A DNA stretch of 64,000 nt from a virus (IMGVR_UViG_3300042922_000906:40054-104053); one strand, 5' to 3'. Shown: positions 12,164 through 50,925, counted from the first letter of the stretch. Notes: generated by a model not told the origin, from the letters alone. Numbers and translations are program-made.

Positions 12164-13063
12164 ATGATATTGAACCAAAATAAACCTTTACCAGAGTTTG
12201 TAATAAATTTCTTAGACTATAAAAAGAATAATGAAAAATTAAGTGACAATACAATAATTGCTTATCAATTAGATATCTATTCTTTTTTAGAGTGGTTGAA
12301 AGAGTATTTCAATACTACTGAAGTATCTTTAAACTTGTTTAACAAATTAACCATTCAAGATGTAGTGAAATGGCAGCGAACACTAAAAAATCAAGCTTCA
12401 ACAGAAGGAAGAAAAATATCTAGCATAAGATTATTGTTTGATTACCTTAATAAATTTAAATTGGTTGATAATGATGTTATGCATAATATTAAGAAGCCTA
12501 AGATACCTAAAAAGCCAAGAAAACACTTGGATTTTGAAACCTCAAAAGAATTGATTCATGTAGCCGAGGTTGAAGGTAGTTTACGAGATGTCGCTATAAT
12601 CAAATTATTTTTGTATAGCGGTATGAGAATAAGCGAAATCACAAATCTTGACTTAGGTGATATAAAAGGTAATAGGGTATATATAAGAGCTGCCAAAGGT
12701 GAAAAAGATAGAATAGTCTATATTGACGAAGATGCAGTTCAGGCAATAAATAATTGGTTGGTAATAAGACCAAAAACAACATGTGATTCAATATTTGTTT
12801 TACATTACTTTAACAAAGAACCATATCGAATTACTGATGCATCAATAAGGAAGATGATTAAGAAATTTGCAGACATAATTGAAGTTGAATTTACTCCTCA
12901 TATCTTAAGACATACTTATGCAACAGATCAATTAGATGCTGGAACACCTTTACCATCAATTCAAAAAGCTTTAGGCCATAGTGATATAAAGACAACTCAA
13001 ATATATGCTCACACAACAGAAAAACAATTAATGCAAATGGCAGGAAAGGTAAAATACAAATAG
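12164..13063 (+). CDS. tyrosine site-specific recombinase / phage integrase (XerC/D-like)
   Basis: N-terminal SAM-like core-binding region. The C-terminal catalytic motifs HILRHTYAT...LGHSDIKTTQIYAH give the R...HxxR...Y tyrosine nucleophile arrangement. Confidence 0.85.
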   Translation: MILNQNKPLPEFVINFLDYKKNNEKLSDNTIIAYQLDIYSFLEWLKEYFNTTEVSLNLFNKLTIQDVVKWQRTLKNQASTEGRKISSIRLLFDYLNKFKLVDNDVMHNIKKPKIPKKPRKHLDFETSKELIHVAEVEGSLRDVAIIKLFLYSGMRISEITNLDLGDIKGNRVYIRAAKGEKDRIVYIDEDAVQAINNWLVIRPKTTCDSIFVLHYFNKEPYRITDASIRKMIKKFADIIEVEFTPHILRHTYATDQLDAGTPLPSIQKALGHSDIKTTQIYAHTTEKQLMQMAGKVKYK

Positions 13064-15397: not shown

Positions 15398-16300
15398 ATG
15401 AAAACTTTTTATGACAAATTTAAATCATACAATAAACCGATCTACGAAAATAAAAATTGGATTGATATGAAAGAAGTATCCAGACTAGTTAATTTAGCCA
15501 AAGGTAATCGAAATACTTCTCAATTTCTAACAGATATGAATTTGACATGTGAAACAGAACAAATTATTGATATGATAAATGGCCGGTATAATTCTTGTAT
15601 AAGACTACATCACTTGAAAAAGATTGCAAAAGCATCTGAAGGAAGAGTGGATTTTGATCAGCTAAATGCTATATTTAAATTTATGGAAAATAATTCTTTG
15701 GATGAATTAAAGAATATTAATATCGAGCGTAGTGATATTTGTCAAGTTAATCTTGGCGAAGCGCTTGACAATGAGCATGGTGGCATAAAGATGTGCGTGG
15801 TTATTTCAAATAATAAAGGAAATGGTTCAAGTGCAACTTTTCAATTAATCCCTTTGTCTTCATCTATCGGGAAAAATTACATTCCTTCACATGTGCCTGT
15901 GGGTTTGGAATCAGGAATATTAAAACCTTCTGTAGCAATGATTGAACAACTTAGAGTTAAAACAAAGGCAAGTCTTTTATTTGATGGTGAGATAATTAAA
16001 GTCGGAAAAGTATCTGAAGCAACCATGATAAAAATAGAATCAGCGATTAAAAAGCAGTTTGGTATGATTAGTCTTAATTTTAATCCAAGATTTGCGGAAG
16101 AAATGGTAAGAGCAATATTAGGAGTTATGAATGTAGTTGAAGATGATGATAATCTTGTTATAGCTAAAAACCTCTTATGGAAAGATCTTGAAGCTTATTG
16201 TGCAGATTATGATAAGGATGCCAAATCAATTTTTAATGAGTTTACAACTAAAATTGCGCGCGGTGAACCTGTTTTTAAGAGATTCTGTCTTGTCGGCTGA
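15398..16300 (+). CDS. MazF/PemK-fold endoribonuclease-domain protein with N- and C-terminal extensions
   Basis: The central region GDICQVNLGEALDNEHGGIKMCVVISNN...FQLIPLSSS...PSHVPV parallels the MazF core (GDIvlvdF.P..GsEq.g.RPavVls...vvPiTs). Confidence 0.5.
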   Translation: MKTFYDKFKSYNKPIYENKNWIDMKEVSRLVNLAKGNRNTSQFLTDMNLTCETEQIIDMINGRYNSCIRLHHLKKIAKASEGRVDFDQLNAIFKFMENNSLDELKNINIERSDICQVNLGEALDNEHGGIKMCVVISNNKGNGSSATFQLIPLSSSIGKNYIPSHVPVGLESGILKPSVAMIEQLRVKTKASLLFDGEIIKVGKVSEATMIKIESAIKKQFGMISLNFNPRFAEEMVRAILGVMNVVEDDDNLVIAKNLLWKDLEAYCADYDKDAKSIFNEFTTKIARGEPVFKRFCLVG

Positions 16301-16438: not shown

Positions 16439-17764
16439 ATGAAAGCTAACAAAGAAGAACTTATAAATGTATTATATCCTGCAATAGAACGGTCAAGAAG
16501 AAACAATGAAGTAAAAGATGTAAATTATTTAAAAGATAAATTAGCAGAACATAATATAGGAATTGGAAAGGTTCAGGGTATTTATGACACAAATATTCCT
16601 TTAGAAACATTATCTAATGCCGACTTATACTTGTTTACTAAATATTTGTTTGAAACAACTAAAAATGAAACAATTAACATTACAAATTGGTTTTATGATG
16701 AAGAAATAAAAACTCATGATCAACATACTGAAGATGTATTTTATAAAGATAACAAGATTATTTTATATGATGTAAGTCAAACTTCGGAGTATGAATATTT
16801 AGTATCGAAAATGACTTATGTTGAAATGAGTAATATTATTAATCAGAAATTATTAACATATAATTATCGTACTCAGAGAGAAGCAAGAATAGTTTATTTT
16901 GGAAATGAATTTATTAAAAGACCTGAAGTAAAGTCAAATAAGATTATGGACATGTTTGAGATGATGAAAACAGGTTTTGAAGCCAATTTGATATCTCTTA
17001 ACATTCGTAAAATTGGGACAGAAAAATTTGTATATGATGAAAAGAAGCGAATTTTGATTATCGAAGTTGATAATGATAATACTTTTTTGGACATAATTGA
17101 TGGTTTTCATAGGTGGCTTGCAGCAACAGCTTGCATAATGAACAATCCAAGTAATCAAGGATATTTTCATGCTAAAATATATAATATGACAGAAAGTAAA
17201 GCACAAAGCTATTTAGCAAGAGAAGAGAAAGCATCACCAATGAATTTATCTCATGTTGCAGGTTATGATAATAGAGATGCTTATGTAACATTTACCAAAG
17301 ATATTAATTCTTATGGTGAGAATAGAAAAAGTAATGAATTATTTGGTATGATAGCGCTTGATGATATTGAGTATTTGTCACAGAATAAATATACTACTGT
17401 TGAGGTGTTTTCAAAAGGATTGAAGCATAATTTTAAATTTAAAGATATGAATGCCAGAGAATTAGGAAAGTTACAAGATTTTTTTGTTAAATATTTTAAT
17501 GAATTATTAGGTATTTTACAGGAGAAGTATTCAGGTGAAAATAGCGTTATCTTTGAAAAGAAAATTTTTATCGGTTATATCGCTTTGGGCAGCAAATTAA
17601 TAAACAAGAATGATTGGAAATTATTATTAGAGCAGGCGCTTTCTTCGATAGATTTTTCAAGATCGAGTGATTGGGAAAATATAGGTTTATTCAAAGATGA
17701 TGTTAATAATAGTAATGTGAAACTGATAAGTAATTATTTTAAGAAAGAAGTTGGTGTGGATTAA
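16439..17764 (+). CDS. ParB/Srx-fold (DGQHR / DUF262-like) domain protein
   Basis: TQREARIV (GERRxRA-like) followed by LDIIDGFHRWLAA (a DGxHR box). Length 441 aa. Confidence 0.4.
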   Translation: MKANKEELINVLYPAIERSRRNNEVKDVNYLKDKLAEHNIGIGKVQGIYDTNIPLETLSNADLYLFTKYLFETTKNETINITNWFYDEEIKTHDQHTEDVFYKDNKIILYDVSQTSEYEYLVSKMTYVEMSNIINQKLLTYNYRTQREARIVYFGNEFIKRPEVKSNKIMDMFEMMKTGFEANLISLNIRKIGTEKFVYDEKKRILIIEVDNDNTFLDIIDGFHRWLAATACIMNNPSNQGYFHAKIYNMTESKAQSYLAREEKASPMNLSHVAGYDNRDAYVTFTKDINSYGENRKSNELFGMIALDDIEYLSQNKYTTVEVFSKGLKHNFKFKDMNARELGKLQDFFVKYFNELLGILQEKYSGENSVIFEKKIFIGYIALGSKLINKNDWKLLLEQALSSIDFSRSSDWENIGLFKDDVNNSNVKLISNYFKKEVGVD

Positions 17765-18699
17765 TGTATAATAAAGAGATTAAGGAAAAGTTTATTAATG
17801 AACACTATAACACCGAAGAAAGTAAAAAAGTAGTTGAGTGTGCTTTTAATAATTATAGTAAAATTGAAGAACAATATGATACTGATCTATATCATTTCAA
17901 TTTTTATCAAAGAAATGAATTGCTTATGAATCTATCTTCGTCTAGTATAAAGGCAATAAGAAAAGATTATAATTATATTCAAAGTTATGTACGGTGGGCA
18001 GAAAATAGGGGAATGTGTCCTCTTAATATGGCTTTTATAGATTTGTCAACTAATGAATTAAAACAATTTGTTTCAAATGCAAAGAAAGATCAATTTATTA
18101 AAAACAGAGAAGAATTATATAATAATTTTTTACCTAAGATACATAATGTAATAGACAAGGCCATGATAATATTAATATATGAGGGTGTGCTAGGTAAGGA
18201 AGCTGTTGATCTAGTTAATTTTACTAAAGAGAATATAGAATTTGATAAACAACGATTTATATTTAATACGAAAAAGGGAACAAGAATTATTCCTAACATT
18301 GATCAGCAATCAATAGATATACTAAAAAAATCAATTAGTGAGACAATTTACGAACTAGACAATGGTAATTCTAATGCTAAAGCACCAACTAGAAATTTAG
18401 CTAATTCAGATTATATTGTAAGACCAATTATTGGTTTTGAAGATAAAATTAATAGAATGGGTGTTATAACTAAGTTTTCAAAAATAAAGATTTGGACTGA
18501 AAAACGGTATATAAAACCAAAAAGTATTCATTATTCAGGGATGTTTGATAAGTTAAGAAATATTGAAATTAGTGAAAAAAGAGATTTAGTTACTTATGAT
18601 TATGAAGATGTTTTAACATTATATGGATATAATGCAAAGCAATCAGCACATTTAAAATTGGATTATGAATATTTTTGTGAGATGTTTTACGGAGAATAA
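17764..18699 (+). CDS. hypothetical protein translationally coupled to the ParB-like gene (TAATG overlap)
   Basis: ORF of 311 aa whose start overlaps the upstream stop. Confidence 0.4.
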   Translation: MYNKEIKEKFINEHYNTEESKKVVECAFNNYSKIEEQYDTDLYHFNFYQRNELLMNLSSSSIKAIRKDYNYIQSYVRWAENRGMCPLNMAFIDLSTNELKQFVSNAKKDQFIKNREELYNNFLPKIHNVIDKAMIILIYEGVLGKEAVDLVNFTKENIEFDKQRFIFNTKKGTRIIPNIDQQSIDILKKSISETIYELDNGNSNAKAPTRNLANSDYIVRPIIGFEDKINRMGVITKFSKIKIWTEKRYIKPKSIHYSGMFDKLRNIEISEKRDLVTYDYEDVLTLYGYNAKQSAHLKLDYEYFCEMFYGE

Positions 18700-22377: not shown

Positions 22378-23549
22378 TAAAGGTTTTAAAAAATATTTCA
22401 TATTTTATTCGCATTATTCAAAATTAAGGACGGTAAAGATATATAAGTGATATTGTAAACTATAATTCAGCTATGGAAGATTATATAAATAAACATTTGT
22501 CATTAAGCAAGTTAGCAGAAATTTATAAAATCTCTAGATATAAGCTAACAAAATTATTAAATAAGAATGGTATCAAGATTAGGAATCATAATATTGTTGA
22601 TGTGAACTATAAGGTTGATAATTGCTACTTTGATAAAATTAATACCGAATCAAAAGCGTATTGGCTTGGATTTATTTATGCAGATGGATGTATTAATACG
22701 AGTGGGAATAGTTTAAGATTTTCAATTGAATTAGCCGATTACGATTTTAACCATTTAAAAAAATTTAGAAAAGCAATTAAATCTAATCATCCAATTACTG
22801 AAAGACAAAATAGCAAAAGAAATACATGCAATATTTCAATTAATAGTCGAAACATTGTAAATAAACTAATAGACATTGGATGTGTTACAAATAAAACATA
22901 TAATGGATTTATAGACCCAAACATTTTAAAAACAACAGAAATGAAAATTGCTTTTATTAGAGGTTATTTAGATGGAAATGGTTATATTGACAAGGGTGAC
23001 AAGTATAGAATTGTATTCACATTACAATCAGAAAAATTGGTTGAAGATTTAAATATAATGATAAGAGAGTTAAAAATACATACAAGAATACAAAAAGATC
23101 AAGAATATTTTAGAATACATATTGAAAGAAAAAATGATTTTTATCAACTATTAAATCTAATATATAAAAATGCGAGTATATATTTAGATAGAAAATATGA
23201 AATATTTTTAAGAAGAACAATGCCGTTTGGTCAAGAAACTGACCAAATAATTAGTGCGAAATTAAGCTGGGAAGTCCTTCCAAACATGTACGAACATAAA
23301 GGTAATGTTTTAGGATAATCAGAACCGAAGGCTAATTTTAAAAGATTAGTCAGGGGCAGAGCATAGAGATTGAAATTATATATTCCATTAATATATAAAA
23401 TATAATATCTCCACGAGGTCGCACTACCTAACCTTATATTATAAAAATTTATGGAATTTGATGATTAATATAAGTATGGTAAAAAGATATGCCGAACAAG
23501 TTTGTAATGAACTTGAGGTAAAGATAAAAAGCTTTACGATAACAAATTG
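22378..23549 (+). mobile_element. group I intron interrupting clpX (approx. 1172 nt; 5' exon ends in U, intron ends in G)
   Basis: Joining 22377 to 23550 gives ...[41 protein letters not shown], matching the ClpX consensus across the junction. The insert carries a free-standing LAGLIDADG ORF and about 230 nt of 3' structured sequence. Confidence 0.6.
22473..23318 (+). CDS. LAGLIDADG homing endonuclease (double-motif, intron-encoded)
   Basis: Two dodecapeptide motifs are present: WLGFIYADGCI and IRGYLDGNGYI. Length 281 aa. Confidence 0.75.
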   Translation: MEDYINKHLSLSKLAEIYKISRYKLTKLLNKNGIKIRNHNIVDVNYKVDNCYFDKINTESKAYWLGFIYADGCINTSGNSLRFSIELADYDFNHLKKFRKAIKSNHPITERQNSKRNTCNISINSRNIVNKLIDIGCVTNKTYNGFIDPNILKTTEMKIAFIRGYLDGNGYIDKGDKYRIVFTLQSEKLVEDLNIMIRELKIHTRIQKDQEYFRIHIERKNDFYQLLNLIYKNASIYLDRKYEIFLRRTMPFGQETDQIISAKLSWEVLPNMYEHKGNVLG

Positions 23550-25814: not shown

Positions 25815-26717
25815 ATGTACAAAACTGTGAAAAGATTAGATAGTAGTGAGGGGAATGTATGGAAATACATATTTGAATTTGAAAATGCAATAGCTGAAGC
25901 AGTGTTATATAAATATGATTCTTTTAATGAACGTACTGTTATATGTTGTTCAGTGCAAAGTGGATGTCCAATAGGTTGTACATTTTGTGGTACAGGTAAA
26001 AGATTTATTAGGAATCTATCAAATGAAGAAATTCTTAGTCAAATTACTTATATACTAAAGGATATGAACATTGAAGGAGTCAATAGTTCTAGTAAAAAAT
26101 TTCAGATCATGTTTATGAGTATGGGAGAACCAATGCTTAATTTTAAAGAAGTAGAAAGGGCTATTAGAAGTTTGCACATATTATATCCTAATGCTGACCT
26201 ATTAATGTCTACTATTGGTGTAGATAATGATGATGTTTTCAGAAATATTATAGAATTATCAAAAGATATACATAAGGTAGGGTTACAATTTTCAATACAT
26301 AAATCATGTGATGCTGATCGAAATGAATTAATACCATATAAAAATAAGATGAGTTTATACAAGCTAAGAGATGCAGGATTATTATGGTGGAAAGAGACAG
26401 GTAGAAAACCGTATTTAAATTATTGCGTAGATGGAACAAATAATAAGCATAGTGATTTTTTAAAATTGTATATGAATTTTAGTCCACTTGCATTCTGCTT
26501 TACATTTAGTGTGGTTTGTAGTGCCGATGAAACAATGAAAAAAGCAGGATTTAGAAATTTAGAATCAATTCAAAAATTTCAAGAATATTTCTTAGACAGA
26601 GGATATGATTGCAGAATATTTAATCCAGCAGGTCAAGATGATATTGGTGGAGGATGCGGACAATTATTTTATGTGCAGCAATGGTTAAAGGACTATAAGA
26701 AGACCGATAAAATATAA
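25815..26717 (+). CDS. radical SAM RNA methyltransferase of the RlmN/Cfr family (N-terminally minimal)
   Basis: CCSVQSGCPIGCTFCGTGK parallels the RlmN CVSSQVGCALACTFCSTGQ cluster. MFMSMGEPMLN parallels VFMGMGEPLLN. The C-terminal DDIGGGCGQL parallels DDIDAACGQL, the methyl-carrier Cys. At 300 aa it lacks the roughly 75-aa N-terminal accessory domain. Confidence 0.65.
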   Translation: MYKTVKRLDSSEGNVWKYIFEFENAIAEAVLYKYDSFNERTVICCSVQSGCPIGCTFCGTGKRFIRNLSNEEILSQITYILKDMNIEGVNSSSKKFQIMFMSMGEPMLNFKEVERAIRSLHILYPNADLLMSTIGVDNDDVFRNIIELSKDIHKVGLQFSIHKSCDADRNELIPYKNKMSLYKLRDAGLLWWKETGRKPYLNYCVDGTNNKHSDFLKLYMNFSPLAFCFTFSVVCSADETMKKAGFRNLESIQKFQEYFLDRGYDCRIFNPAGQDDIGGGCGQLFYVQQWLKDYKKTDKI

Positions 26718-31304: not shown

Positions 31305-31535
31305 TTGAGAAATTGGATTAAAGTAGCAATAGGGTTGTTTATAATATTTTTTCTATTTGCTAATCCCTATACAAGAATGATCGTTTTGTTTTTACTTCCA
31401 TTAGGTTCAGGCTTTGATGATTTAATTGAAATAGTAGCTTTGGTTTTATTGATAATATTAGGTATCTATAAAATCATAGAGAATTGGGATTACATAGTTG
31501 ATTGGTTTAAATATGATTATAAAAATAAATATTGA
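31305..31535 (+). CDS. small membrane protein
   Basis: ORF of 76 aa with two TM helices. Confidence 0.3.
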   Translation: MRNWIKVAIGLFIIFFLFANPYTRMIVLFLLPLGSGFDDLIEIVALVLLIILGIYKIIENWDYIVDWFKYDYKNKY

Positions 31536-32476
31536 TTAGGAGAATAAAAATGAAAAATATTAAAAAGTTATTGGTTTTAGTTTTAATAATTGTGTTAAGT
31601 ATAAGTTTTACAGGATGTTATCACTGGAGTGAAGTAAGTTCAAATCAAATAGGTTTACAAATGGATGATGGAGTAACAATATCCAAGGTTGTAAATTCTG
31701 GAAGATATACAGATTGGGGTTGGTTTGCAAATATTGAAAAGATAGATACATCTGCAAAGACCGTAATATGGGAAGACCCTGATATGTGGACTTCAGACAA
31801 GCAACCAGTTAAGTTTAAAATTTCTGTTACATATTCAAGAAGTAGAGATGAAAAGGCAGCTAAAATATTATGGGAAAAATATAATTCTGAGGCCACAGAT
31901 GACAAAACACTACAGCAACTTGTTACGACTCGAATTCCAAGAGTAGCAAAACAAGTAACTACAAGTATGACACTAGACCAGATGTTGGGAATTACTTCTG
32001 AAAATTCAGCAGCCAACACCAATGAAGAAAAGGGAAGAGAACTGCTTCAAGATAATATGTCAAAATTATTAAAAGAAGAGTTAAGTGAATGTGGTATTGA
32101 TTTGTTAGATGTAGGTGTTAATGATATAGGCGTGGACGAAGATTATGCTAAACAGCTTAAAGAAAAAGCAGTATCTAAAGTAGCTTCAGAGGTTTCAAAA
32201 GAAAAAACTGCACAATTAAATGAACAGTTAAACCAAGAAAAAGCACAAACACTTATTGATCAAGAAGTTGCAAACAGAAAAAACAATGTGTTGGGTAAAG
32301 AAAACGAAATTTATTTAACAAATCCGAGAGCGTATGAACTGGAAAGATTAAGATTACTAAAAGATGTAATCGGGGATAGTGATAAAATCTATTTTGTTCC
32401 ATCTGATGCAGATTTGAATTTGGTATTGTCGGGTTCTGGTAATGTTAGCGTCCCGATAGATAATAAAGAAAAGTAG
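31532..32476 (+). CDS. lipoprotein with a coiled-coil C-terminal half
   Basis: Signal peptide plus a lipobox (LVLIIVLSISFTGC). Length 314 aa. Confidence 0.5.
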   Translation: MIRRIKMKNIKKLLVLVLIIVLSISFTGCYHWSEVSSNQIGLQMDDGVTISKVVNSGRYTDWGWFANIEKIDTSAKTVIWEDPDMWTSDKQPVKFKISVTYSRSRDEKAAKILWEKYNSEATDDKTLQQLVTTRIPRVAKQVTTSMTLDQMLGITSENSAANTNEEKGRELLQDNMSKLLKEELSECGIDLLDVGVNDIGVDEDYAKQLKEKAVSKVASEVSKEKTAQLNEQLNQEKAQTLIDQEVANRKNNVLGKENEIYLTNPRAYELERLRLLKDVIGDSDKIYFVPSDADLNLVLSGSGNVSVPIDNKEK

Positions 32477-32704
32477 AATAATATAGTATATCGTTTGTAG
32501 GTAACGTATAACCTTCAATCCATAAGGATGTAACAAAATGGCTAATGTGCATGACTTTGACTCATGAAATAGAGTTTCGATTACTCTCATCCTTGCCAAT
32601 AACATCGTGTAATTGCTGTTGTGCTTTGTTATTCATGTGTACCCTCCTTTTTTTGAAAGCGTTTGTAGGTATCGCTTGAGAAATCAGAATAACCTTCAGA
32701 TATA

Positions 32705-32780
32705 TTGCGGATTAGCCAAGTAGGTAAGGCAGTAGATTTTGATTCTATCATACTCAGGTTCAAGTCCTGAATCCGTAGCC
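32705..32780 (+). tRNA. tRNA-Gln (anticodon UUG), CCA encoded
   Basis: Hand-folded cloverleaf. Acceptor stem TGCGGAT/ATCCGTA with a U1:A72 pair and G73, as in bacterial tRNA-Gln. U8 is present. The D-arm has GG in its loop. Anticodon stem GTAGA/TCTAT with loop TTTTGAT (U33, UUG, A37). T-arm TCAGG-TTCAAGT-CCTGA. The 3' CCA lies at 32778-32780. Confidence 0.8.
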
Positions 32781-33156
32781 AATTAATTTAATAAAGGTGA
32801 CTGAAAGTTTAGGGTTAAGGCTTAGACAAAACCAATAAACGATGATGAGTAACGAGGGTGACAGCTTATATGTCTTGAATATACCTAAAGTGGGTATCTA
32901 GGAAGATTAGTTGAAATGATACATACTACTTCCAAAAACTATAATAATTTGACGTGATACTGTGTCTAGGATATTTTGAATATTACTAGAATCGTGAAAA
33001 TTGGAGTTACTAATTAAGTCGGCCGAAGTAGTCAATATAAGTGAACGTGCTATATAAGCTAAATGGTTCTACCTGTATTAAATTAAATACCATAAAATGG
33101 ACATTTTAATGTGTGATTAAATAAAATATTATACATAAGGAAGGAAATAGAAAAAA

Positions 33157-34440
33157 ATGAAAGAATTATTAGAGGTTAAAATACTAATTGATAAGATTGC
33201 AGAGACATCTAGTAGGAATGAAAAAGAAGCAATACTAAAAGATTATAAAGCAGTTCCACTATTTAGAGAAATTTTATACTTTGTTTATTCACCATATATT
33301 CTTACAGGAATAAGCAAGAAGAAAATATCTAAACAGGTTGGTATGATTAATGGTTTTAGTAAACCACAAAACATAAAAGAATTAATGGATTATCTAAGAA
33401 TACATAATTCTGGTAGAGATGTTGATATATCAACATGTGAATGCTTTTATACAAACTTTGATAATGAACTTCAAGACTTTATTAAAAAGATTGTTACTAA
33501 AGATGTGGTTATTGGAATTACTGCCGACAGTATAAATAAGGCATTTGGTGAAGAGTTTATTCCAACATTTGATGTTATGTTGGCAAAGAAATATGATGAA
33601 CATAAAGACAAAGTTAAAGGGAATTTTGTAATAACTCAGAAACTTGACGGAAATAGAATTGTGCTTATTAAAGAGAACGGTTTGATAAAAACATTCACTA
33701 GACAGGGAAAACAATATGAAGGTTTGGAAGAAATAGAATCTGACTTTAAAGATATTCCAATTGATAATATTGTATTTGATGGCGAATTAATTGCTGATGT
33801 AAAAGGAAGTACACATGAAATATATACTGAAACTACAAGTAAGGCAAGAAGTAAGGGAAGCAATAAAACAGGATTGTTATTTTATGTGTTTGATGTTTTA
33901 CCTTTGAAAGAATTTCAAAGTGGCAAATCAAATTTAAATGCCATACAAAGAAAATTGAACTTGAGTGATATTTTTAATAAATTTACTTTGCAACATTGTA
34001 TTGAGGTTAAACCATTATATACTGGCTCTGATGTTACTCAAATCGATAAGTGGATGGAATATGCTAATCAAAACGCATGGGAAGGTTTAATGATTAATCT
34101 TGATAAGCCCTATGTTTGTAAGAGAACAGATTCTATTTTAAAAGTTAAAGGCATGAATACATGCGATCTGAAAGTAATAGGTTTCGAAGAAGGAACTGGA
34201 AGAAATGAAGGAAAACTAGGTGCTTTGTTGGTAGGTTATAAGGGTTATACAGTTGGTGTTGGTAGCGGATTTACTGATGCAGACAGAGATTATATTTGGA
34301 ATCATTTAAAAGAATATGATGGTAAAATAGTTGAAATCCAATATTTCGAAGAATCTAAAAACCAAGATGGTGGATTATCATTAAGATTTCCTGTATTCCT
34401 TAGAAAGAGAGAAGAAGGTAAGGAAGTGAGTTATAATTAA
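33157..34440 (+). CDS. ATP-dependent DNA ligase
   Basis: Motif I QKLDGNR (KxDG), motif III VFDGELI, motif IV WEGLMI and motif V ILKVKG are all present, with a C-terminal OB-fold region. Length 427 aa. Confidence 0.85.
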   Translation: MKELLEVKILIDKIAETSSRNEKEAILKDYKAVPLFREILYFVYSPYILTGISKKKISKQVGMINGFSKPQNIKELMDYLRIHNSGRDVDISTCECFYTNFDNELQDFIKKIVTKDVVIGITADSINKAFGEEFIPTFDVMLAKKYDEHKDKVKGNFVITQKLDGNRIVLIKENGLIKTFTRQGKQYEGLEEIESDFKDIPIDNIVFDGELIADVKGSTHEIYTETTSKARSKGSNKTGLLFYVFDVLPLKEFQSGKSNLNAIQRKLNLSDIFNKFTLQHCIEVKPLYTGSDVTQIDKWMEYANQNAWEGLMINLDKPYVCKRTDSILKVKGMNTCDLKVIGFEEGTGRNEGKLGALLVGYKGYTVGVGSGFTDADRDYIWNHLKEYDGKIVEIQYFEESKNQDGGLSLRFPVFLRKREEGKEVSYN

Positions 34441-34442
34441 TA

Positions 34443-35093
34443 ATGAAGTGTGAAGTATGTAATTCAGAAGATAGAGTTTGTTTTAATAAAATTACGCAAA
34501 AATATCTTTGTGGGAGACATAGACAACAAGTAAGTAAAAATGGAAAAGTATTACTTTATACATGCTATGATAAAAATAATATAATAACATATAATGATTG
34601 TGCTGAAATAGTATTGCTTGATAAAAATTATGTTGAAATTGCGAGAGCGAAGATATCTTTAAATAGAATAGAAAAAGTAAAACTATATAGTTGGCGTCTA
34701 CAAGACTATAATAATCCAAAAGATTCTTATGTTGTAGCGAAACACAATAAACAAGCAATTTTATTACATAGATATTTATTAGATGCTAAAGAAAATGAAG
34801 TTGTTGATCATATTAACAGAGATAAATTAAATAATTTAGATGAAAATCTAAGAAAAGTTTGTACATCAGAGAATCAAGTTAATAAAGGTATAATGTCAAA
34901 TAATACTTCTGGCGTTACAGGTGTAACTTGGGATAGGTTAAGAGATAAATGGAAAGTTTCACTAAATATTTATAATAAATGTTATAACTTAGGAAGATAT
35001 GATAACTTTGATGATGCTGTAAGAGTTAGATTAGATGCAGAAAAGTTGTATCATAAAGAATTTATCCCAATTGAAAGACAAGAACATACATAA
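34443..35093 (+). CDS. HNH homing endonuclease with a C-terminal AP2 DNA-binding domain
   Basis: HNH core VVDHINRDKLNNLDENLRKVCTSENQ. AP2 segment SGVTGVTWDRLRDKWKVSL...LGRYDNFDDAVRVRLDAEKLYH. The gene abuts the DNA ligase stop. Confidence 0.8.
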   Translation: MKCEVCNSEDRVCFNKITQKYLCGRHRQQVSKNGKVLLYTCYDKNNIITYNDCAEIVLLDKNYVEIARAKISLNRIEKVKLYSWRLQDYNNPKDSYVVAKHNKQAILLHRYLLDAKENEVVDHINRDKLNNLDENLRKVCTSENQVNKGIMSNNTSGVTGVTWDRLRDKWKVSLNIYNKCYNLGRYDNFDDAVRVRLDAEKLYHKEFIPIERQEHT

Positions 35094-38481: not shown

Positions 38482-38510
38482 AAAAATACTTCTTTACAAA
38501 TTTAAACTGC
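38482..38510 (+). promoter_or_regulatory. sigma-A-type promoter (TTTACA, 17 nt spacer, TATAAT)
   Basis: Near-consensus hexamers with the conserved spacer AATTTAAACTGCAATAT. Confidence 0.5.
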
Positions 38511-38550
38511 AATATTATAATATAAATATAAAAAAGAAAAGAGAACGAAA

Positions 38551-38931: not shown

Positions 38932-39078
38932 GTGCTTTAAATTAAAAGAATATAATATAAGGTGGGAGTGATTATGACTATATATCATGCAGAACCCAAT
39001 ATGAAGAGAGTTACTTCATATTATATTATCAAAGGAATTTTAGTTACAAAAATATATTATAGGAAGGATACATAAGAA

Positions 39079-40383
39079 ATGAGTTATAACGCTTATATAA
39101 CAAAAATCAAGAATATAAGAAAACATACAAATGCAGACAGATTACAAGTAGGTGAATGTTTTGAAAACTTTGTTATTGTTAGTATGGATACACGAGACAA
39201 TGAACTAGGAGTGTACTTCCCAACTGATGGACGGTTAGGTACTGAATACTGTGAATCCAACAATCTACTAAGAAAGAAAGACGAAAATGGTAATAATATT
39301 GGCGGTTATTTAGAACCCGAAAAAAGACATATATCATCGTTGAAATTTCGTGGTGAAAAATCAGATGGTTTATTTATGCCACTAAAGAGCCTCGAAAACT
39401 TTTGTAATATTTCAGATTTAAAAGAAGGAGATATTATTACAACTTTAAATGGAACTTTAATATGTGAAAAATACATACCAAAATCTAATAGAAGAAATAA
39501 TGCTCTAACTAACAATAAAGAAAAGAAGAAGCTTATAGATAAAATATCTTATCCTATGTTTGAAGAACATATAGATACATCACAACTGGCATATAATTTG
39601 AATCAATTCAAACAGGGTGATTTATGTTATATAACTCTTAAAATGCATGGTACATCTCAAAGAACAGCTTATACTATTCAAGAGTTTCTAAAAAAAAGGA
39701 ATTTAATCCAAAGAATATTTAAGTTAAAAAATAAAATAAATAAGTCATGGCAATATGTTAGTGGCACAAGACGTTGTATTTTAATGAATTTTGATAATGG
39801 ATTTTATGGAAATGACTTGTTCAGAAAAACATTCCATGATTACTTTGTTGGGAAGTTATATAAGGGCGAAGAAGTGTTTTATGAAGTTGTTGGATATGTA
39901 AATGAAAATACTACCATCATGCCAGAATGCAATAATAAAAAAACCAATGATAAAGAATTTATCAAGCAATATGGAGAAACAACAAGATTTACATATGGAT
40001 GTGGTGTAGGTCAAAGTGATATTTATGTTTATAGAATAACCAAAACAGATGAAGATGGGAATATTGTTGAATATCCTTGGCATTTAGTCAAGTTGAGATG
40101 TGACCAAATGGGAGTTAAACATGTTCCAGAATTTGATAAATTTATATATTCTACTCAAGAAGATTTGATGAATCGAGTTAATGTATATGTAGATGGAACT
40201 GACCCAATAGGCAAAACTCATGTTAGAGAAGGTGTGGTTATAAGAATAGAAAACAGAGAAAAATTTTCTGCCTTTAAACATAAGAATTTTAATTTTAAAG
40301 TATTAGAAGGAATTATCAAAGCAAATGATGTTTTAGATATGGAGGAGGCTAATAGTGAAGAATTATCAACAAATAATGAATAG
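39079..40383 (+). CDS. RNA ligase (Rnl2-type nucleotidyltransferase motifs with an N-terminal OB-like domain)
   Basis: Motif I LKMHGTSQ (KxHG as in T4 Rnl2 KIHG), motif IV REGVVIRIEN (EGxV) and motif V AFKHKNF (K..K). The N-terminus IRKHTNADRLQVGEC is OB / tRNA-binding-like. Confidence 0.6.
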   Translation: MSYNAYITKIKNIRKHTNADRLQVGECFENFVIVSMDTRDNELGVYFPTDGRLGTEYCESNNLLRKKDENGNNIGGYLEPEKRHISSLKFRGEKSDGLFMPLKSLENFCNISDLKEGDIITTLNGTLICEKYIPKSNRRNNALTNNKEKKKLIDKISYPMFEEHIDTSQLAYNLNQFKQGDLCYITLKMHGTSQRTAYTIQEFLKKRNLIQRIFKLKNKINKSWQYVSGTRRCILMNFDNGFYGNDLFRKTFHDYFVGKLYKGEEVFYEVVGYVNENTTIMPECNNKKTNDKEFIKQYGETTRFTYGCGVGQSDIYVYRITKTDEDGNIVEYPWHLVKLRCDQMGVKHVPEFDKFIYSTQEDLMNRVNVYVDGTDPIGKTHVREGVVIRIENREKFSAFKHKNFNFKVLEGIIKANDVLDMEEANSEELSTNNE

Positions 40384-41155
40384 ACTTCAGGAGCATTATA
40401 GTGAAGTTGAAAATATGGGATATGAAATTGTAGGAGTGTTTCTTCAAGGTAGCCAGAATTATGATTTAGCTTATAAAAATAGTGATATAGATAGTAAGGC
40501 TATATTGCTTCCAAAATTCAATGATTTTGTATTAAATAATAAGGTAGTAAGCATAACTCATGTGATGAAAAATAATGAACATATAGATTTGAAAGATATT
40601 AGATTAATGTTTGATTGCTTTAAGAAACAGAATATAAACTTTGTGGAAATTCTATTTTCAAAATATAAAATTATTAATCCTAAGTATGAAAAGTTTATGC
40701 AAAAGCTATTTGACAATAATGAAAAGATAGCAAGATATAATAATTATGCTTCTTTAAACTGCATCAGTGGAACTACTATGGAGAAGTATAAGGCACTAGA
40801 ACATCCATATCCTACACTTATAGATAAGATTGAAAAATATGGGTACGACCCAAAACAGTTGCATCACATTATCAGACTTAATGAATTTATCAAAAGATAT
40901 CTAGCAGGAGAAAAATATTCCGATTGTTTAGTATCGAAGAATAAAGAATATTTAATTGGAGTTAAGAAAGGTATTCACACTTTAGAAGAAGCAAGAGCAT
41001 TAGCAAAGACACTATCTGATGATACTTATCAAATAAAAACTAATTACATGAATAATAATCCAGTTCGAATTGTTAAAGAATGTGAAGATATTTTAAATGG
41101 TGTCTTGTTGGATATAATGAAGCACAACTTTAAATGTGAGTTAAGTGAGGTTTGA
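40355..41155 (+). CDS. pol-beta-superfamily nucleotidyltransferase
   Basis: GVFLQGSQNYDLAYKNSDIDSKAI gives the hG[GS] ... DxD arrangement. Confidence 0.5.
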   Translation: MKNYQQIMNRLQEHYSEVENMGYEIVGVFLQGSQNYDLAYKNSDIDSKAILLPKFNDFVLNNKVVSITHVMKNNEHIDLKDIRLMFDCFKKQNINFVEILFSKYKIINPKYEKFMQKLFDNNEKIARYNNYASLNCISGTTMEKYKALEHPYPTLIDKIEKYGYDPKQLHHIIRLNEFIKRYLAGEKYSDCLVSKNKEYLIGVKKGIHTLEEARALAKTLSDDTYQIKTNYMNNNPVRIVKECEDILNGVLLDIMKHNFKCELSEV

Positions 41156-42059
41156 AATGAATAAGTTTATTATGATGGTTGGACTTCCTGCAAGTGGTAA
41201 ATCTACTATTGCAGAAGAACTATCGAGAGAAGAAAATGCTATTGTTCATGCTTCAGATAGATTAAGGAAAGAGTTATTTGGAGATGAAAATGCAAATGAT
41301 AAAAATGTTGAGCTATTTAAAGAGTTACATAAGAGAATTAAAAATGATTTAAGTGAAGGCAAAAATGTAATTTATGATGCTACAAACATAAACTATAAGC
41401 GCAGGAAAGCTTTTCTTGAAGAATTGAAGAACATCAGTTGTAAAAAGATTTGTTATTTAATTGCTACTCCATATGAAGAGTGTTTGGAGCAAAATAAACT
41501 CAGAGAAAGATTCGTTCCAGAGCATGTAATTAAAAAAATGTATCTTGGTTTTTATATTCCTCAATATTATGAAGGTTGGGATAAAATTGAAATCGTTTAT
41601 ACTAGAAATAGTGGGAAACGAATTACAGATTTATTGCAACGTTTAAAAGAAATAGACCAAGAAAATAAACATCACACTTTAACTATAGGAAATCATTGTT
41701 CACAATGTTTAAATTACATTGAAAAGAAAGTAGATGACATTAATTTATCTTATGCAGCTTTATTGCATGATATAGGGAAGGAGTTTACCAAAGAATATAA
41801 AAACTCAAAAGGCGAAGATACTATCGAAGCACATTATTTTCAACATCACTTAGTATCTGCTTATGATTCACTATTTTATTTGGATGGTGCTCAGAACTCT
41901 AACTTTATTTTAATAGAAACAGTTGCTTTAATTATGTGGCATATGCAACCATTCTTTATAGAAACTGAAAAAGCCAAGAAAAAGTTTATAAGATTGGTTG
42001 GTCAAGAGTTTTATGATAAGTTGATGATTTTACATGAGGCAGATAAGATGGCTCATTAG
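41145..42059 (+). CDS. P-loop polynucleotide kinase fused to an HD phosphohydrolase (Pnkp-like RNA end-healing enzyme)
   Basis: N-terminal Walker A MMVGLPASGKST and VIYDATN, as in T4 Pnk. The C-terminal HD domain reads HH...ALLHDIGK...H...D. Confidence 0.6.
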   Translation: MRFEMNKFIMMVGLPASGKSTIAEELSREENAIVHASDRLRKELFGDENANDKNVELFKELHKRIKNDLSEGKNVIYDATNINYKRRKAFLEELKNISCKKICYLIATPYEECLEQNKLRERFVPEHVIKKMYLGFYIPQYYEGWDKIEIVYTRNSGKRITDLLQRLKEIDQENKHHTLTIGNHCSQCLNYIEKKVDDINLSYAALLHDIGKEFTKEYKNSKGEDTIEAHYFQHHLVSAYDSLFYLDGAQNSNFILIETVALIMWHMQPFFIETEKAKKKFIRLVGQEFYDKLMILHEADKMAH

Positions 42060-42633: not shown

Positions 42634-43251
42634 ATGAATCAAAACAATTTTATTGGTATAGCTCTAGATGAGCTATATAGGATATTTGAAATCCTAAACA
42701 AAGAATATTATTCGGAAAAATTAACTTATCCTATGATCACAATTCAAAAAACTAAAAGAAGTGGAAATTTAGGATGGTTTACACTGGATAGAGTTTGGGA
42801 AAAGAAAGATACTGAAGATAAGAGATTTGAAATAAATATTTGTGCTGAATATCTTGGTAGAGATATGTATGATGTAGTCGATACGTTGCAGCATGAAATG
42901 GTTCATTATGCTAATAAAATTTCAGATGTTAAAGATTGTAATGGACAGGTGCATAATAAAAAGTTTAAAACCCTTGCAGAAAGTGTAGGATTGATAGTTG
43001 AGAAAAGTAAGAAGTATGGATATGGACATACTACATGTTCAGATCAATTTAAAAAGTTTATAGATGAAAGTATTCAACCTAATATTGAATGTTTTGCTTA
43101 TTTTAGAAATGTGCCACCAAAGGAAAACACTCCTAAAGAAAAGACACAGTTTACTTATATTTGTCCGAATTGTGAAGAAAAGATTAAGGCCAAAGCCGAT
43201 AAACATATAATATGTGGAGATTGTCAAGTTGAATTTATAATGAAAGAATGA
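42634..43251 (+). CDS. SprT-like zinc metallopeptidase domain protein with a C-terminal zinc ribbon
   Basis: HEMVHYAN is the HExxH motif. The C-terminal zinc ribbon reads CPNCEEK...CGDCQ. Confidence 0.55.
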   Translation: MNQNNFIGIALDELYRIFEILNKEYYSEKLTYPMITIQKTKRSGNLGWFTLDRVWEKKDTEDKRFEINICAEYLGRDMYDVVDTLQHEMVHYANKISDVKDCNGQVHNKKFKTLAESVGLIVEKSKKYGYGHTTCSDQFKKFIDESIQPNIECFAYFRNVPPKENTPKEKTQFTYICPNCEEKIKAKADKHIICGDCQVEFIMKE

Positions 43252-48609: not shown

Positions 48610-48636
48610 TGATTTTATGTGACGAAGGGAGAAAAT

Positions 48637-49419
48637 ATGATAAAAGTTAATGGTTTTCTTGTTGGAAACGAGTGTTTTCCTAATAATGAAAGGATATTAA
48701 AAATAAATGATTTTGGTGATAAATACTTTGATATTGAATTTAAGTACGAAACAGATATTGACATTTCTATTTTAATAATGGTCAAGAAGTACCTAGATGA
48801 TACATATCCTAATTCATACATACATTTAATAATGAAGTATGTTCCATACTCAAGAATGGATAGAAAAATTGAAGGATATATGTTCAGCCTTAAGTATTTT
48901 TGTCAGCTAATAAATGATTTACATTTTAGTGATGTTCAGGTATTAGATACACACTCAAATGTAACAACTGCTTTACTTGATAGATGTACGGAAATGAGCA
49001 TTCAAGATAATATCAGTAGAATATTTTCAAATATTCATATTGATTATGTTTTTTATCCTGATAACGGAGCAATGAAAAGATATAGTGAAATTCTTAAAAT
49101 TCCAGTACCATACTTCTACGGAAATAAGAAAAGAAATCTTAATACTGGTGAAATTGTCGGCTATGAATTAGTAGATTGTCCAGACATTAAGGATAAAGAT
49201 ATTTTAATAATAGATGACTTGTGTGCAAAAGGATTTACATTCTATAATGCAGCACAAAAGTTAAAAGACAATGGAGCTAATAATATTAATTTATATGTAT
49301 CTCATTGTGAAAATTCTATTTATCAAGGACAATTACTGAAATCTGATCTAATTAAGACCATATTTACAACTGATTCAATTTTAACTGATTGGTCAAGTAA
49401 AATATTATATAATGTCTAA
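48637..49419 (+). CDS. ribose-phosphate pyrophosphokinase-family enzyme (Prs-like; candidate ADP-ribose pyrophosphokinase of a phage NAD+ pathway)
   Basis: KYVPYSRMDRK parallels the Prs segment IPYFGYARQDRK. ILIIDDLCAKGFTF is the C-terminal PRPP-binding loop. The start is set at the ATG behind a GAAGGGAG SD. Confidence 0.65.
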   Translation: MIKVNGFLVGNECFPNNERILKINDFGDKYFDIEFKYETDIDISILIMVKKYLDDTYPNSYIHLIMKYVPYSRMDRKIEGYMFSLKYFCQLINDLHFSDVQVLDTHSNVTTALLDRCTEMSIQDNISRIFSNIHIDYVFYPDNGAMKRYSEILKIPVPYFYGNKKRNLNTGEIVGYELVDCPDIKDKDILIIDDLCAKGFTFYNAAQKLKDNGANNINLYVSHCENSIYQGQLLKSDLIKTIFTTDSILTDWSSKILYNV

Positions 49420-49440
49420 CAAGAATAAGAGGAGAAAAGA

Positions 49441-50925
49441 ATGAATAAAAATTATATCTATCCAGCAACATTATTGTGTGACTTTTACAAGGTGTCTCAT
49501 AGAGAACAATATCCAAAGGGAACAGAGATTGTATACAGTACATGGATACCAAGAGCAAGTAGAATAACTGGAATTGACAAGGTAGTTGCTTTTGGGTTTC
49601 AAGCATTTATTAAAGAATATATCATTAAATATTTTAATGACAATTTCTTTAATAGGCCAAAGAATGAAGTAATAGAAGAATACATAAGGGTTATAAAAAA
49701 TACATTAGGTATACAAAATCCAGATGCTAGTCATATCGAAGAATTATATGATTTAGGGTATATGCCTATTAAGATTAAAGCGGTTAAAGAAGGTACTTTA
49801 GTTCCTTTGCGAGTACCAATGTTGACAATTGAAAATACTGAACTTAGATTCTTCTGGTTAACAAACTATCTGGAAACACTCATGTCTTGTGCTATGTGGA
49901 TACCATCCACCAGTGCAACAATAGCATTTGAATATAGAAAAATACTTGAAAAATATGCAAAGGAAACTGTAGGTAATATTGAAGGAGTTCAATTCCAAGG
50001 TCATGATTTTAGTATGAGGGGTATGGGTGCATTAGATTCAGCAAAAGTTAGTGGAGCTGGACATTTACTTTCATTTGTAGGTACAGATACAATTCCTGCA
50101 ATACTATTTACCGAAGAATTCTATAATGCAAATATTGAACAAGAATTAATAGGCACTTCAATACCAGCTACCGAACATTCAGTACAATGTGCTTATGGAA
50201 GAGACGAGTTCTCATCTTATAAAAGAATTATTACTGAAATATATCCAAGTGGTTTTGTTTCAATTGTTAGTGACACATGGGACTTGTGGAAGGTATTAAC
50301 CGATGTTGTTGCTAAATTAAAGACAGAGATAATGTCTAGAGACGGTAGAGTAGTAATTAGACCAGATAGCGGTGATCCAGTAAAAATTATTTGTGGAGAC
50401 CCCAAATCAGATAATGAACTTGAAAGAAAAGGTGTGGTTGAAGTTCTATGGGATATTTTTGGTGGAACTATCACAGCGAAAGGCTATAAGCAGCTTGAAA
50501 CACATATCGGATGTATTTATGGAGATGCCATAACCCTTGAAAGGGCAACCGCAATATGCGAAGGGTTAAAAGCTAAAGGATTCGCTTCAACAAATACAGT
50601 GTATGGTATTGGCTCATTTACATATCAGTATAATACAAGAGATACTTTTGGATTTGCTTTGAAATCTACGCATGTTGTCATTGATGGTATAGATCAAAAT
50701 ATTTATAAAGACCCTGCGACAGATAAAGATAAGATTAAAAAATCATTGATAGGTAGAGCGTGTGTATTAAATGACAGAGGGTATATTCATACCATAGACG
50801 GATTATCAATAGTACAACAGAGTAATTGTAGAGCGGATATTCTTGAAGATCTTTTTGTTGACGGTGAATTACTGAGAGATGAAAACTTTATCGATATTAG
50901 AAATAGATTGTTATCAAATCTTTAA
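49441..50925 (+). CDS. nadV: nicotinamide phosphoribosyltransferase family (NadV/Nampt-like)
   Basis: 494 aa. The N-terminus YPATLLCDFYKVSHREQYP reads as the conserved Nampt start, and GTDT and related motifs are present. Confidence 0.75.
   Translation: MNKNYIYPATLLCDFYKVSHREQYPKGTEIVYSTWIPRASRITGIDKVVAFGFQAFIKEYIIKYFNDNFFNRPKNEVIEEYIRVIKNTLGIQNPDASHIEELYDLGYMPIKIKAVKEGTLVPLRVPMLTIENTELRFFWLTNYLETLMSCAMWIPSTSATIAFEYRKILEKYAKETVGNIEGVQFQGHDFSMRGMGALDSAKVSGAGHLLSFVGTDTIPAILFTEEFYNANIEQELIGTSIPATEHSVQCAYGRDEFSSYKRIITEIYPSGFVSIVSDTWDLWKVLTDVVAKLKTEIMSRDGRVVIRPDSGDPVKIICGDPKSDNELERKGVVEVLWDIFGGTITAKGYKQLETHIGCIYGDAITLERATAICEGLKAKGFASTNTVYGIGSFTYQYNTRDTFGFALKSTHVVIDGIDQNIYKDPATDKDKIKKSLIGRACVLNDRGYIHTIDGLSIVQQSNCRADILEDLFVDGELLRDENFIDIRNRLLSNL

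Follow-up and report, generated by a model that had tools for sequence, protein, structure and literature searches.

A phage gene cassette encoding an Rnl5-type RNA ligase, an RlaP-like nucleotidyltransferase and a kinase-HD fusion with a probable role in RNA repair

Repair of broken RNA is a classic counter-defence of phages, and in phage T4 the polynucleotide kinase Pnkp and the RNA ligase Rnl1 undo the damage caused by the nuclease PrrC. T4 Pnkp contains an N-terminal P-loop 5'-kinase followed by a 3'-end phosphoesterase domain of the DxDxT (HAD) phosphatase type, and T4 also encodes the ligase Rnl2 and, at a scattered location, the nucleotidyltransferase NrdC.11, which has been named as the T4 RlaP (PMC12776372). 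Here, we describe a cassette of three genes in a 64,000-nucleotide (nt) stretch of viral DNA (IMGVR_UViG_3300042922_000906:40054-104053; hereafter the window, meaning the whole stretch) that appears to follow the same heal-then-seal logic. The cassette encodes an ATP-dependent RNA ligase of Rnl5 architecture (open reading frame 1, ORF1), an RlaP-like Pol-beta nucleotidyltransferase (ORF2) and a polynucleotide 5'-kinase with a C-terminal HD phosphohydrolase domain (ORF3; Table 1). While the order of kinase and 3'-end domain in ORF3 is that of T4 Pnkp, the HAD phosphatase is replaced by an HD domain, the ligase belongs to the Rnl5 rather than the Rnl1 or Rnl2 type, and the RlaP-type gene lies inside the operon.

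Three groups of bacterial systems are also closely comparable. Bacterial Pnkp (Clostridium thermocellum, Pnkp-Hen1) likewise joins kinase, phosphoesterase and ligase functions for RNA repair and contains the closest solved relative of the ORF3 kinase, but it uses a calcineurin-like phosphoesterase, carries the ligase Rnl4 in the same polypeptide and needs Hen1, whereas the phage cassette has an HD domain and a separate Rnl5 gene. The HD-Pnk of Runella slithyformis combines an HD 2',3'-phosphoesterase with a 5'-OH kinase as predicted for ORF3, and its gene adjoins and overlaps that of an ATP-dependent ligase; the HD domain is, however, N-terminal, the system is bacterial and not viral, and the cluster contains Tpt1 and a methyltransferase-HIT gene in place of RlaP (PMC6097658). 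RlaP, the RNA ligase-associating Pol-beta, owes its name to the linkage of its gene with those of RNA ligases (PMC7824862, PMC12776372). Experiments on the role of these enzymes have begun only recently. In RlaP repair operons (Burroughs and Aravind 2016; Pseudomonas RtcB-RlaP-RtcA), a Pol-beta protein of the PF10127 lineage is encoded between RNA repair genes, as in the window, and the role predicted for it is to restore nucleotides lost at the 3' end before ligation (PMC7824862, PMC12776372). Two Pseudomonas RlaPs add one or two nucleoside monophosphates (NMP) or deoxynucleoside monophosphates (dNMP) to RNA 3'-OH ends, and are inactive on 3'-phosphate RNA and on DNA 3' ends in any context tested (2025 preprint, PMC12776372). 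The RlaP product is compatible with ligases that join 5'-phosphates and chemically mismatched with RtcB (PMC12776372). Compared with the Pseudomonas RtcB operon, the ORF2 clade is divergent, and its ligase partner is predicted to join 3'-OH to 5'-phosphate ends, so that an RlaP product would be directly ligatable. As RlaP-linked repair operons have already been described computationally, the cassette is of a known kind that was predicted in the literature and introduces no new principle. A first-pass annotation of the window had called it a non-canonical variant, in part owing to the extra nucleotidyltransferase; its reading of this protein as an added 3'-end rebuilder stands, but the label overstates the novelty since the enzyme probably belongs to the already described RlaP family.

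We consider it likely that the three genes constitute one translationally coupled module for broken RNA in a large phage of Firmicutes. They are consecutive and co-oriented, in agreement with the first-pass annotation, which had also described them as overlapping: ORF1 and ORF2 do overlap by 29 nt if ORF2 starts at GTG 40355, while ORF3 abuts ORF2, as ATG 41157 lies 1 nt past the ORF2 stop. GTG 40355 is the most likely start of ORF2 because a GGAGGAGG ribosome-binding site precedes it by 6 nt and homologue N-termini are equal in length; the alternative, ATG 40376, would yield 259 residues. Similarly, the mechanical call of ORF3 is GTG 41145-42059 (304 residues), but ATG 41157 is the most likely start because it is preceded by GAGG at a distance of 6 nt and is also where most aligned homologues start, typically with M-x-K-F/L-I-M-M. 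The window has a G+C content of ~28%, and its long ORFs are read almost exclusively from the + strand. At this base composition a codon is a stop with a probability of 0.096, and 64 kilobases (kb) would be expected to contain 1e-15 to 3e-8 ORFs of the three lengths; each of the three proteins has thousands of homologues. On the coding strand, no terminator-like site was identified within the cassette. The scan for promoters and terminators performed no better than on shuffled sequence, with one good -35/-10 match at 38493-38521. In the 147-nt gap directly before the ligase gene, a 33-codon ORF (38975-39076) is present, which has a strong ribosome-binding site (AAGGTGGGAG).

Table 1. Coordinates of the genes, domains and sites of the predicted RNA repair cassette, counted from the first nucleotide of the window.
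Feature	Position	Strand	Remarks
Ribosome-binding site GGAAGGA	39062..39068	+	10 nt before ligase ATG; read from sequence
ORF1, ATP-dependent RNA ligase, Rnl5 architecture	39079..40383	+	434 residues
N-terminal OB domain of ORF1, residues 1-133, signature Rnl5 N-domain	39079..39477	+	profile match to NgrRnl
Lys188 codon, motif I adenylylation lysine (KMHG)	39640..39642	+	invariant in 34 homologues
Ribosome-binding site GGAGGAGG	40341..40348	+	6 nt before GTG 40355, within ORF1 3' end; read from sequence
ORF2, RlaP-like Pol-beta nucleotidyltransferase	40355..41155	+	266 residues, GTG start
Ribosome-binding site GAGG	41147..41150	+	6 nt before ATG 41157; read from sequence
ORF3, polynucleotide 5'-kinase + C-terminal HD phosphohydrolase	41157..42059	+	300 residues from ATG 41157
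Kinase domain of ORF3, residues 1-140: P-loop G9-T17, general base D34, R37, D74, R116	41157..41576	+	invariant in 33 homologues
HD domain of ORF3, residues ~165-300: H173, H204-D205, H230, H262, D296	41649..42056	+	invariant metal-ligand set

ORF1 encodes an Rnl5-type ligase composed of an N-terminal OB domain and a nucleotidyltransferase domain, and lacks a C-terminal domain. The protein matches the PHROGs RNA ligase family phrog_968 (1e-70) and NCBIfam TIGR02306 (DRB0094, Deinococcus RNA ligase; 2e-10), and more weakly Pfam RNA_ligase PF09414 (26.5 bits over residues 184-398, cut-off 27) and the PHA02142 OB-fold domain PF21189 (21 bits, residues 6-102). Both Pfam families are assigned to many of its close homologues and score above their cut-offs in the Thrax3 ligase (28.1 bits on PF09414). 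Across 34 homologues, there is no variation in K188 (LKMHG), E269, E384-G385 (REGVVI) and K400-H-K402, which represent ligase motifs I, III, IV and V, respectively. K188 aligns with the motif I lysine K170 (VKLDG) of NgrRnl from Naegleria and with the KIDG of a canonical short Rnl5 of 359 residues from a sister locus, as anticipated by the first-pass annotation, whose quoted motifs for all three proteins are present and invariant across the family alignments, except that it had given ligase motif V as K.HK instead of KHK. The AlphaFold2 model of ORF1 (predicted local distance difference test, pLDDT, 80.7) matches NgrRnl best and over its full length in Foldseek (~420 columns, E 5e-15), and although a single-sequence PDB search returned only noise, a profile of the N-terminal 133 residues had a sole PDB match, residues 5-120 of NgrRnl (E 8e-11), which bears out the proposed N-terminal OB-like domain. 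Downstream of motif V (residues 400-402 of 434), the protein contains only a single helix (404-416) and an acidic tail that is disordered.

The Rnl5 family is defined by its signature N-domain together with the absence of a C-terminal appendage (PMC4408790), and ORF1 has both features and therefore falls within this definition. Its earlier assignment to the Rnl2 type was thus revised: the OB domain is N-terminal, a C-terminal helical domain is lacking, and T4 Rnl2 matches the model over the nucleotidyltransferase domain only (~290 columns, E 3e-7). Likewise rejected was an identification of the N-domain as an EMAP-type tRNA-binding OB fold, an annotation present in two source annotations, which finds weak Foldseek matches to PheRS/YtpR (E 3e-3 to 6e-3) and no match at the sequence level. 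ORF1 shares its domain arrangement and the aligned motif I lysine with the characterised ligases DraRnl (Deinococcus) and NgrRnl, but is only ~15% identical to them, and is ~90 residues longer than NgrRnl, with insertions after motifs I and III, a disordered inter-domain linker (residues 134-154) and the extra C-terminal helix.

ORF2 is a probable, divergent member of the RlaP family that formally falls below the Pfam threshold. It matches phrog_388 in PHROGs (1e-14) and, in an hhalign comparison with T4 NrdC.11, which itself scores 46.6 bits on PF10127, it aligns over 198 columns covering both domains (E 2e-5). When 1.8 billion cluster representatives were searched with a profile, 2455 clusters were retrieved at E <= 1e-3. 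RlaP is matched at E <= 0.01 by 20 of 39 diverse members (best 6.6e-8), with no other family recurring. The nucleotidyltransferase signature noticed in the first pass (GS...DxD) is confirmed by the invariance of G32-S33 and D44-x-D46 in the family alignments; D81 is nearly invariant and likely represents the third catalytic carboxylate. The C-terminal helical domain carries the motif GYDPKQLHH. Four relatives (P0395, P0405, P0463 and P0442) contain insertions of ~340 residues exactly inside the conserved GYD/KQLHH motif, and the insert of P0442 is intein-like, with Cys as its first residue and LAGLIDADG-like segments; this placement suggests that the motif is functionally important. The AlphaFold2 model of ORF2 (pLDDT 91.8) resembles predicted structures of phage RlaP-type nucleotidyltransferases with template-modelling (TM) scores of 0.6-0.84. 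ORF2-family profiles yielded no match in the PDB copy searched, which does not contain the PfRlaP structure. Within the collection of phage genomes that was searched, ORF2 is closest (37% identity) to a protein of phage Phass-1 (OQ749652.1), a member of the 'code 15' clade from the human gut. The gene for this homologue adjoins a tRNA array, and neither a kinase nor a ligase is annotated in its vicinity.

ORF3 encodes an N-terminal kinase domain that, judged by profile and structure-database matches, belongs to the polynucleotide kinase clade of T4 Pnk and bacterial Pnkp, and a C-terminal half that belongs to the HD phosphohydrolase superfamily, in agreement with the fusion described in the first-pass annotation. 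The protein matches AAA_33 (7e-22), bacter_Pnkp (1.5e-13) and the PHROGs polynucleotide kinase phrog_505 (4e-23), and contains the kinase motifs GLPASGKST and YDATN as well as the catalytic Asp and Arg in SSDxLR. Its D34 corresponds in the alignment to D38 (Asn in the 4mde mutant chains), the general base of the C. thermocellum enzyme CthPnkp. A generic AAA protein or zeta toxin had been considered as an alternative identity for this domain; its best PDB match is the CthPnkp kinase domain (6e-20), followed by the tRNA kinase PSTK (1e-13), T4 Pnk (4e-9) and Pnkp1 (7e-9), while zeta toxin scores 23.2 bits, marginally over the cut-off of 22.3. Since PSTK is also close, the ORF3 kinase likely acts on RNA. 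The T4 Pnk matches end at about residue 132, and the remainder contains an HD domain that exceeds the cut-off of PF01966 (28.1 bits, cut-off 22) and whose nearest relatives are the HD-type regions of class II tRNA nucleotidyltransferases (TIGR02692, 2e-5; PDB 3wfp, 2e-7). Two identities for the complete protein were discarded, a T4-type Pnkp with a C-terminal HAD/DxDxT phosphatase, as its C-terminal half is an HD domain, and a Runella-type HD-Pnk, in which the order of the kinase and HD domains is reversed. From its fusion to a Pnk, and by analogy with the Runella enzyme and with the HD domain of the Escherichia coli CCA enzyme, which has phosphodiesterase activity, the HD domain is predicted to function as a 2',3'-cyclic phosphodiesterase or 3'-phosphatase.

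The association of the three genes is conserved. Loci were fetched around nucleotidyltransferase and ligase homologues, their ORFs were scored with purpose-built profiles, and anchors were dereplicated at 95% identity. Among the 33 nucleotidyltransferase-anchored clusters on viral contigs, 32 contain the kinase-HD gene and 29 an ATP RNA ligase gene, which answers the concern that homologues might never be co-located. With the ligase as anchor, 50 viral clusters were obtained (kinase-HD in 39, nucleotidyltransferase in 20), and around the more divergent nucleotidyltransferases on bacterial genome contigs, kinase-HD and ATP RNA ligase genes were identified in 20 and 23 of 51 clusters, respectively. 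The commonest gene order is ligase, nucleotidyltransferase, kinase-HD. The 29 ligases in the nucleotidyltransferase-anchored viral loci are of Pfam-confirmed types, comprising 23 long Rnl5, two short Rnl5, two Rnl1 and two small Rnl2-like proteins. In addition, natural fusions were identified, including a protein of 974 residues that combines kinase, nucleotidyltransferase and HD domains, and others in which the nucleotidyltransferase is fused to a calcineurin-like phosphoesterase or preceded by an HD-like N-terminus. Both these fusions and the exchange of ligases next to an otherwise constant nucleotidyltransferase/kinase-HD pair argue for one shared pathway and against chance adjacency. Fusion proteins in the set are P0442, P0366, P0425, P0502, P0503, P0367, P0375, P0379 and P0384. 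The cultured Lysinibacillus phage LC76P1 (OP172811.1, 13783-17096) encodes the three genes in the same order, all annotated as hypothetical.

These features are consistent with a single heal-and-seal cassette for RNA that uses the logic of T4 Pnkp with an HD in place of a HAD phosphatase, as proposed in the first pass and as borne out by domain assignments, motifs and co-location. In the predicted pathway, the HD domain of ORF3 would yield a 3'-OH by hydrolysing the 2',3'-cyclic phosphate or 3'-phosphate that remains after cleavage by a metal-independent ribonuclease, and the N-terminal kinase of ORF3 would phosphorylate the 5'-OH end. The RlaP-like ORF2 could then restore nucleotides lost from the RNA 3' end, before the ORF1 ligase, adenylylated on Lys188, would seal the 3'-OH and 5'-phosphate ends. 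Because RlaP needs a 3'-OH and its product suits 5'-phosphate ligases (PMC12776372), the four putative activities fit end to end. The cassette is compact and, in this scheme, chemically self-consistent, each predicted product being the substrate of the next enzyme, which would avoid the mismatch reported for RlaP and RtcB (PMC12776372). The most likely substrate, and the least certain part of this proposal, is a tRNA or another translation RNA that has been cut by a host defence nuclease, where the choice of tRNA is a guess. It is plausible, as suggested in the first pass, that the cassette counters PrrC-type anticodon nucleases.

Several observations weigh against this proposal. ORF2 scores 16.9 bits on the RlaP family PF10127, below its gathering cut-off of 23, only four of its 30 close homologues match RlaP at E <= 0.01, and the hhalign probability for the comparison with NrdC.11 (77%) is not decisive. 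The HD domain of ORF3 also shows weak matches to Cas3-HD nucleases, and HD domains are functionally broad. tRNA genes occur within 5 kb of the cassette in only eight of 54 related loci. Finally, characterised Rnl5 ligases seal duplex nicks whose 3'-OH strand is RNA, and DraRnl requires at least two terminal ribonucleotides and its deletion renders Deinococcus radiation-sensitive (PMC4408790, PMC5397189), and an anticodon-loop target in tRNA is therefore not implied by the ligase type.

The same preference for duplex nicks and the radiation phenotype make DNA break repair via a short ribonucleotide patch a real rival explanation. In such a scheme, which resembles that of bacterial LigD, the kinase-HD protein would clean 5'-OH and 3'-phosphate DNA ends, the nucleotidyltransferase would add one or two ribonucleotides and the Rnl5 ligase would seal the nick; the title under which the Runella HD-Pnk is cited in PMC6097658 describes a DNA/RNA end-healing enzyme. 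We nevertheless regard this scheme as improbable. Pseudomonas RlaP does not extend DNA 3' ends (PMC12776372), and Rnl1-type ligases, a family tailored to single-strand RNA breaks (PMC4408790), substitute for Rnl5 in sister loci. Furthermore, an ATP-dependent DNA ligase is encoded 5 kb upstream of the cassette, and the phage thus has a separate enzyme for DNA.

Routine RNA maturation, such as CCA-type rebuilding of tRNA 3' ends or processing of phage tRNAs, would account for the similarity of the HD domain to class II tRNA nucleotidyltransferases, for the presence in the window of two tRNA-Gln genes, 6 kb before the cassette, and for the tRNA arrays adjoining some of its relatives. However, ORF2 has no significant match to CCA-adding enzymes (best fold match E ~0.02), CCA repair requires neither a ligase nor a 5'-kinase, and the scarcity of nearby tRNA genes across related loci applies here as well, which leaves maturation an unlikely function.

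Even less probable is that the nucleotidyltransferase and the HD domain make or degrade immune second messengers instead of acting on RNA ends, with the ligase adjacency being secondary. Among solved structures, the ORF2 model best matches the oligodeoxyadenylate synthase HalB of the Hailong system (E 8e-6) and kanamycin nucleotidyltransferase, both at about 1e-5, and HD domains include nucleotide phosphohydrolases, but the TM score to HalB is 0.35-0.45 and thus well below the values obtained with phage RlaP-type proteins. Moreover, ORF2 shows sequence homology to RlaP, PADLOC reported no match for ORF2 and no defence-system assignment, and the linkage to four RNA ligase types and a polynucleotide kinase is conserved. 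That three independent accessory genes are merely side by side is very unlikely, for although phage genomes are generally mosaic and Tsamsa-like Bacillus phages keep the ligase/kinase-HD pair with the nucleotidyltransferase ~20 kb away, co-location is near-universal after dereplication and is accompanied by ligase swapping around a fixed pair and by multi-domain fusions.

Within the favoured reading as an RNA repair cassette, we tentatively suggest, as a possibility that is more doubtful than the repair function itself, that the nucleotidyltransferase and kinase-HD core represents a dedicated 'heal, rebuild, seal' system which replaces nucleotides that have been cut out by RloC- or PaOrf2-like anticodon nucleases in Firmicutes, and that the long Rnl5 ligases act on broken tRNA rather than on duplex nicks. 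If true, this would be the first natural pathway in which the RlaP product passes directly to a compatible ligase. Copies of the cassette are numerous in phages and prophages of gut Clostridia and Bacilli. As the cultured phage LC76P1 also has one, the cassette offers a practical way to test whether tRNA function is rescued when lost nucleotides are replaced before ligation, and to learn the natural role of Rnl5 ligases.

The window is part of a large phage. Its proteins are also encoded on a contig of 140.8 kb, and the contigs with relatives span 100-215 kb. Related sequences have gut Clostridia, Oscillospiraceae, Lachnospiraceae and Bacilli as hosts, and some copies are located within complete chromosomes and are therefore likely prophages. 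Near the cassette lie genes for a SprT-like protein, a nicotinamide phosphoribosyltransferase and a DnaB-like helicase, as well as the gene for the ATP-dependent DNA ligase (phrog_114, 1e-93), directly after which comes an ORF resembling HNH endonucleases; the two together occupy 33157-35093. The two tRNA-Gln (UUG) genes (32524-32598 and 32706-32781) lie 110 nt apart, and an Rfam scan of the window identified nothing besides them. A phosphoribosyltransferase/phosphoribosyl pyrophosphate (PRPP)-synthetase-like ORF adjoins the gene for nicotinamide phosphoribosyltransferase (phrog_448, 2e-192) at 48619-50925, an arrangement that resembles an NAD+ salvage pair. At 15398-16300, an ORF of 300 residues contains a PemK/MazF-like toxin domain (residues 110-221, 3e-15). 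Further ORFs at 12164-13063, 17764-18699, 22473-23318, 25815-26717, 31532-32476 and 42634-43251 comprise two tyrosine recombinase/integrase-like proteins, a LAGLIDADG endonuclease, a radical S-adenosylmethionine (SAM) protein, an SPFH/Band 7 protein and the SprT-like protein; the presence of two recombinases may point to a temperate or plasmid-like lifestyle.

Recurrent neighbours were also observed in related loci. Many gut-phage loci (L040, L044, L023 and similar) encode a DUF2828/DUF7788 protein and a class V aminotransferase upstream, and a 3'-phosphoadenosine-5'-phosphosulfate (PAPS)-reductase-like protein downstream of the cassette. In one locus (L019:3755-4972), a poly(ADP-ribose) polymerase (PARP)-like ADP-ribosyltransferase is encoded directly upstream of the nucleotidyltransferase.

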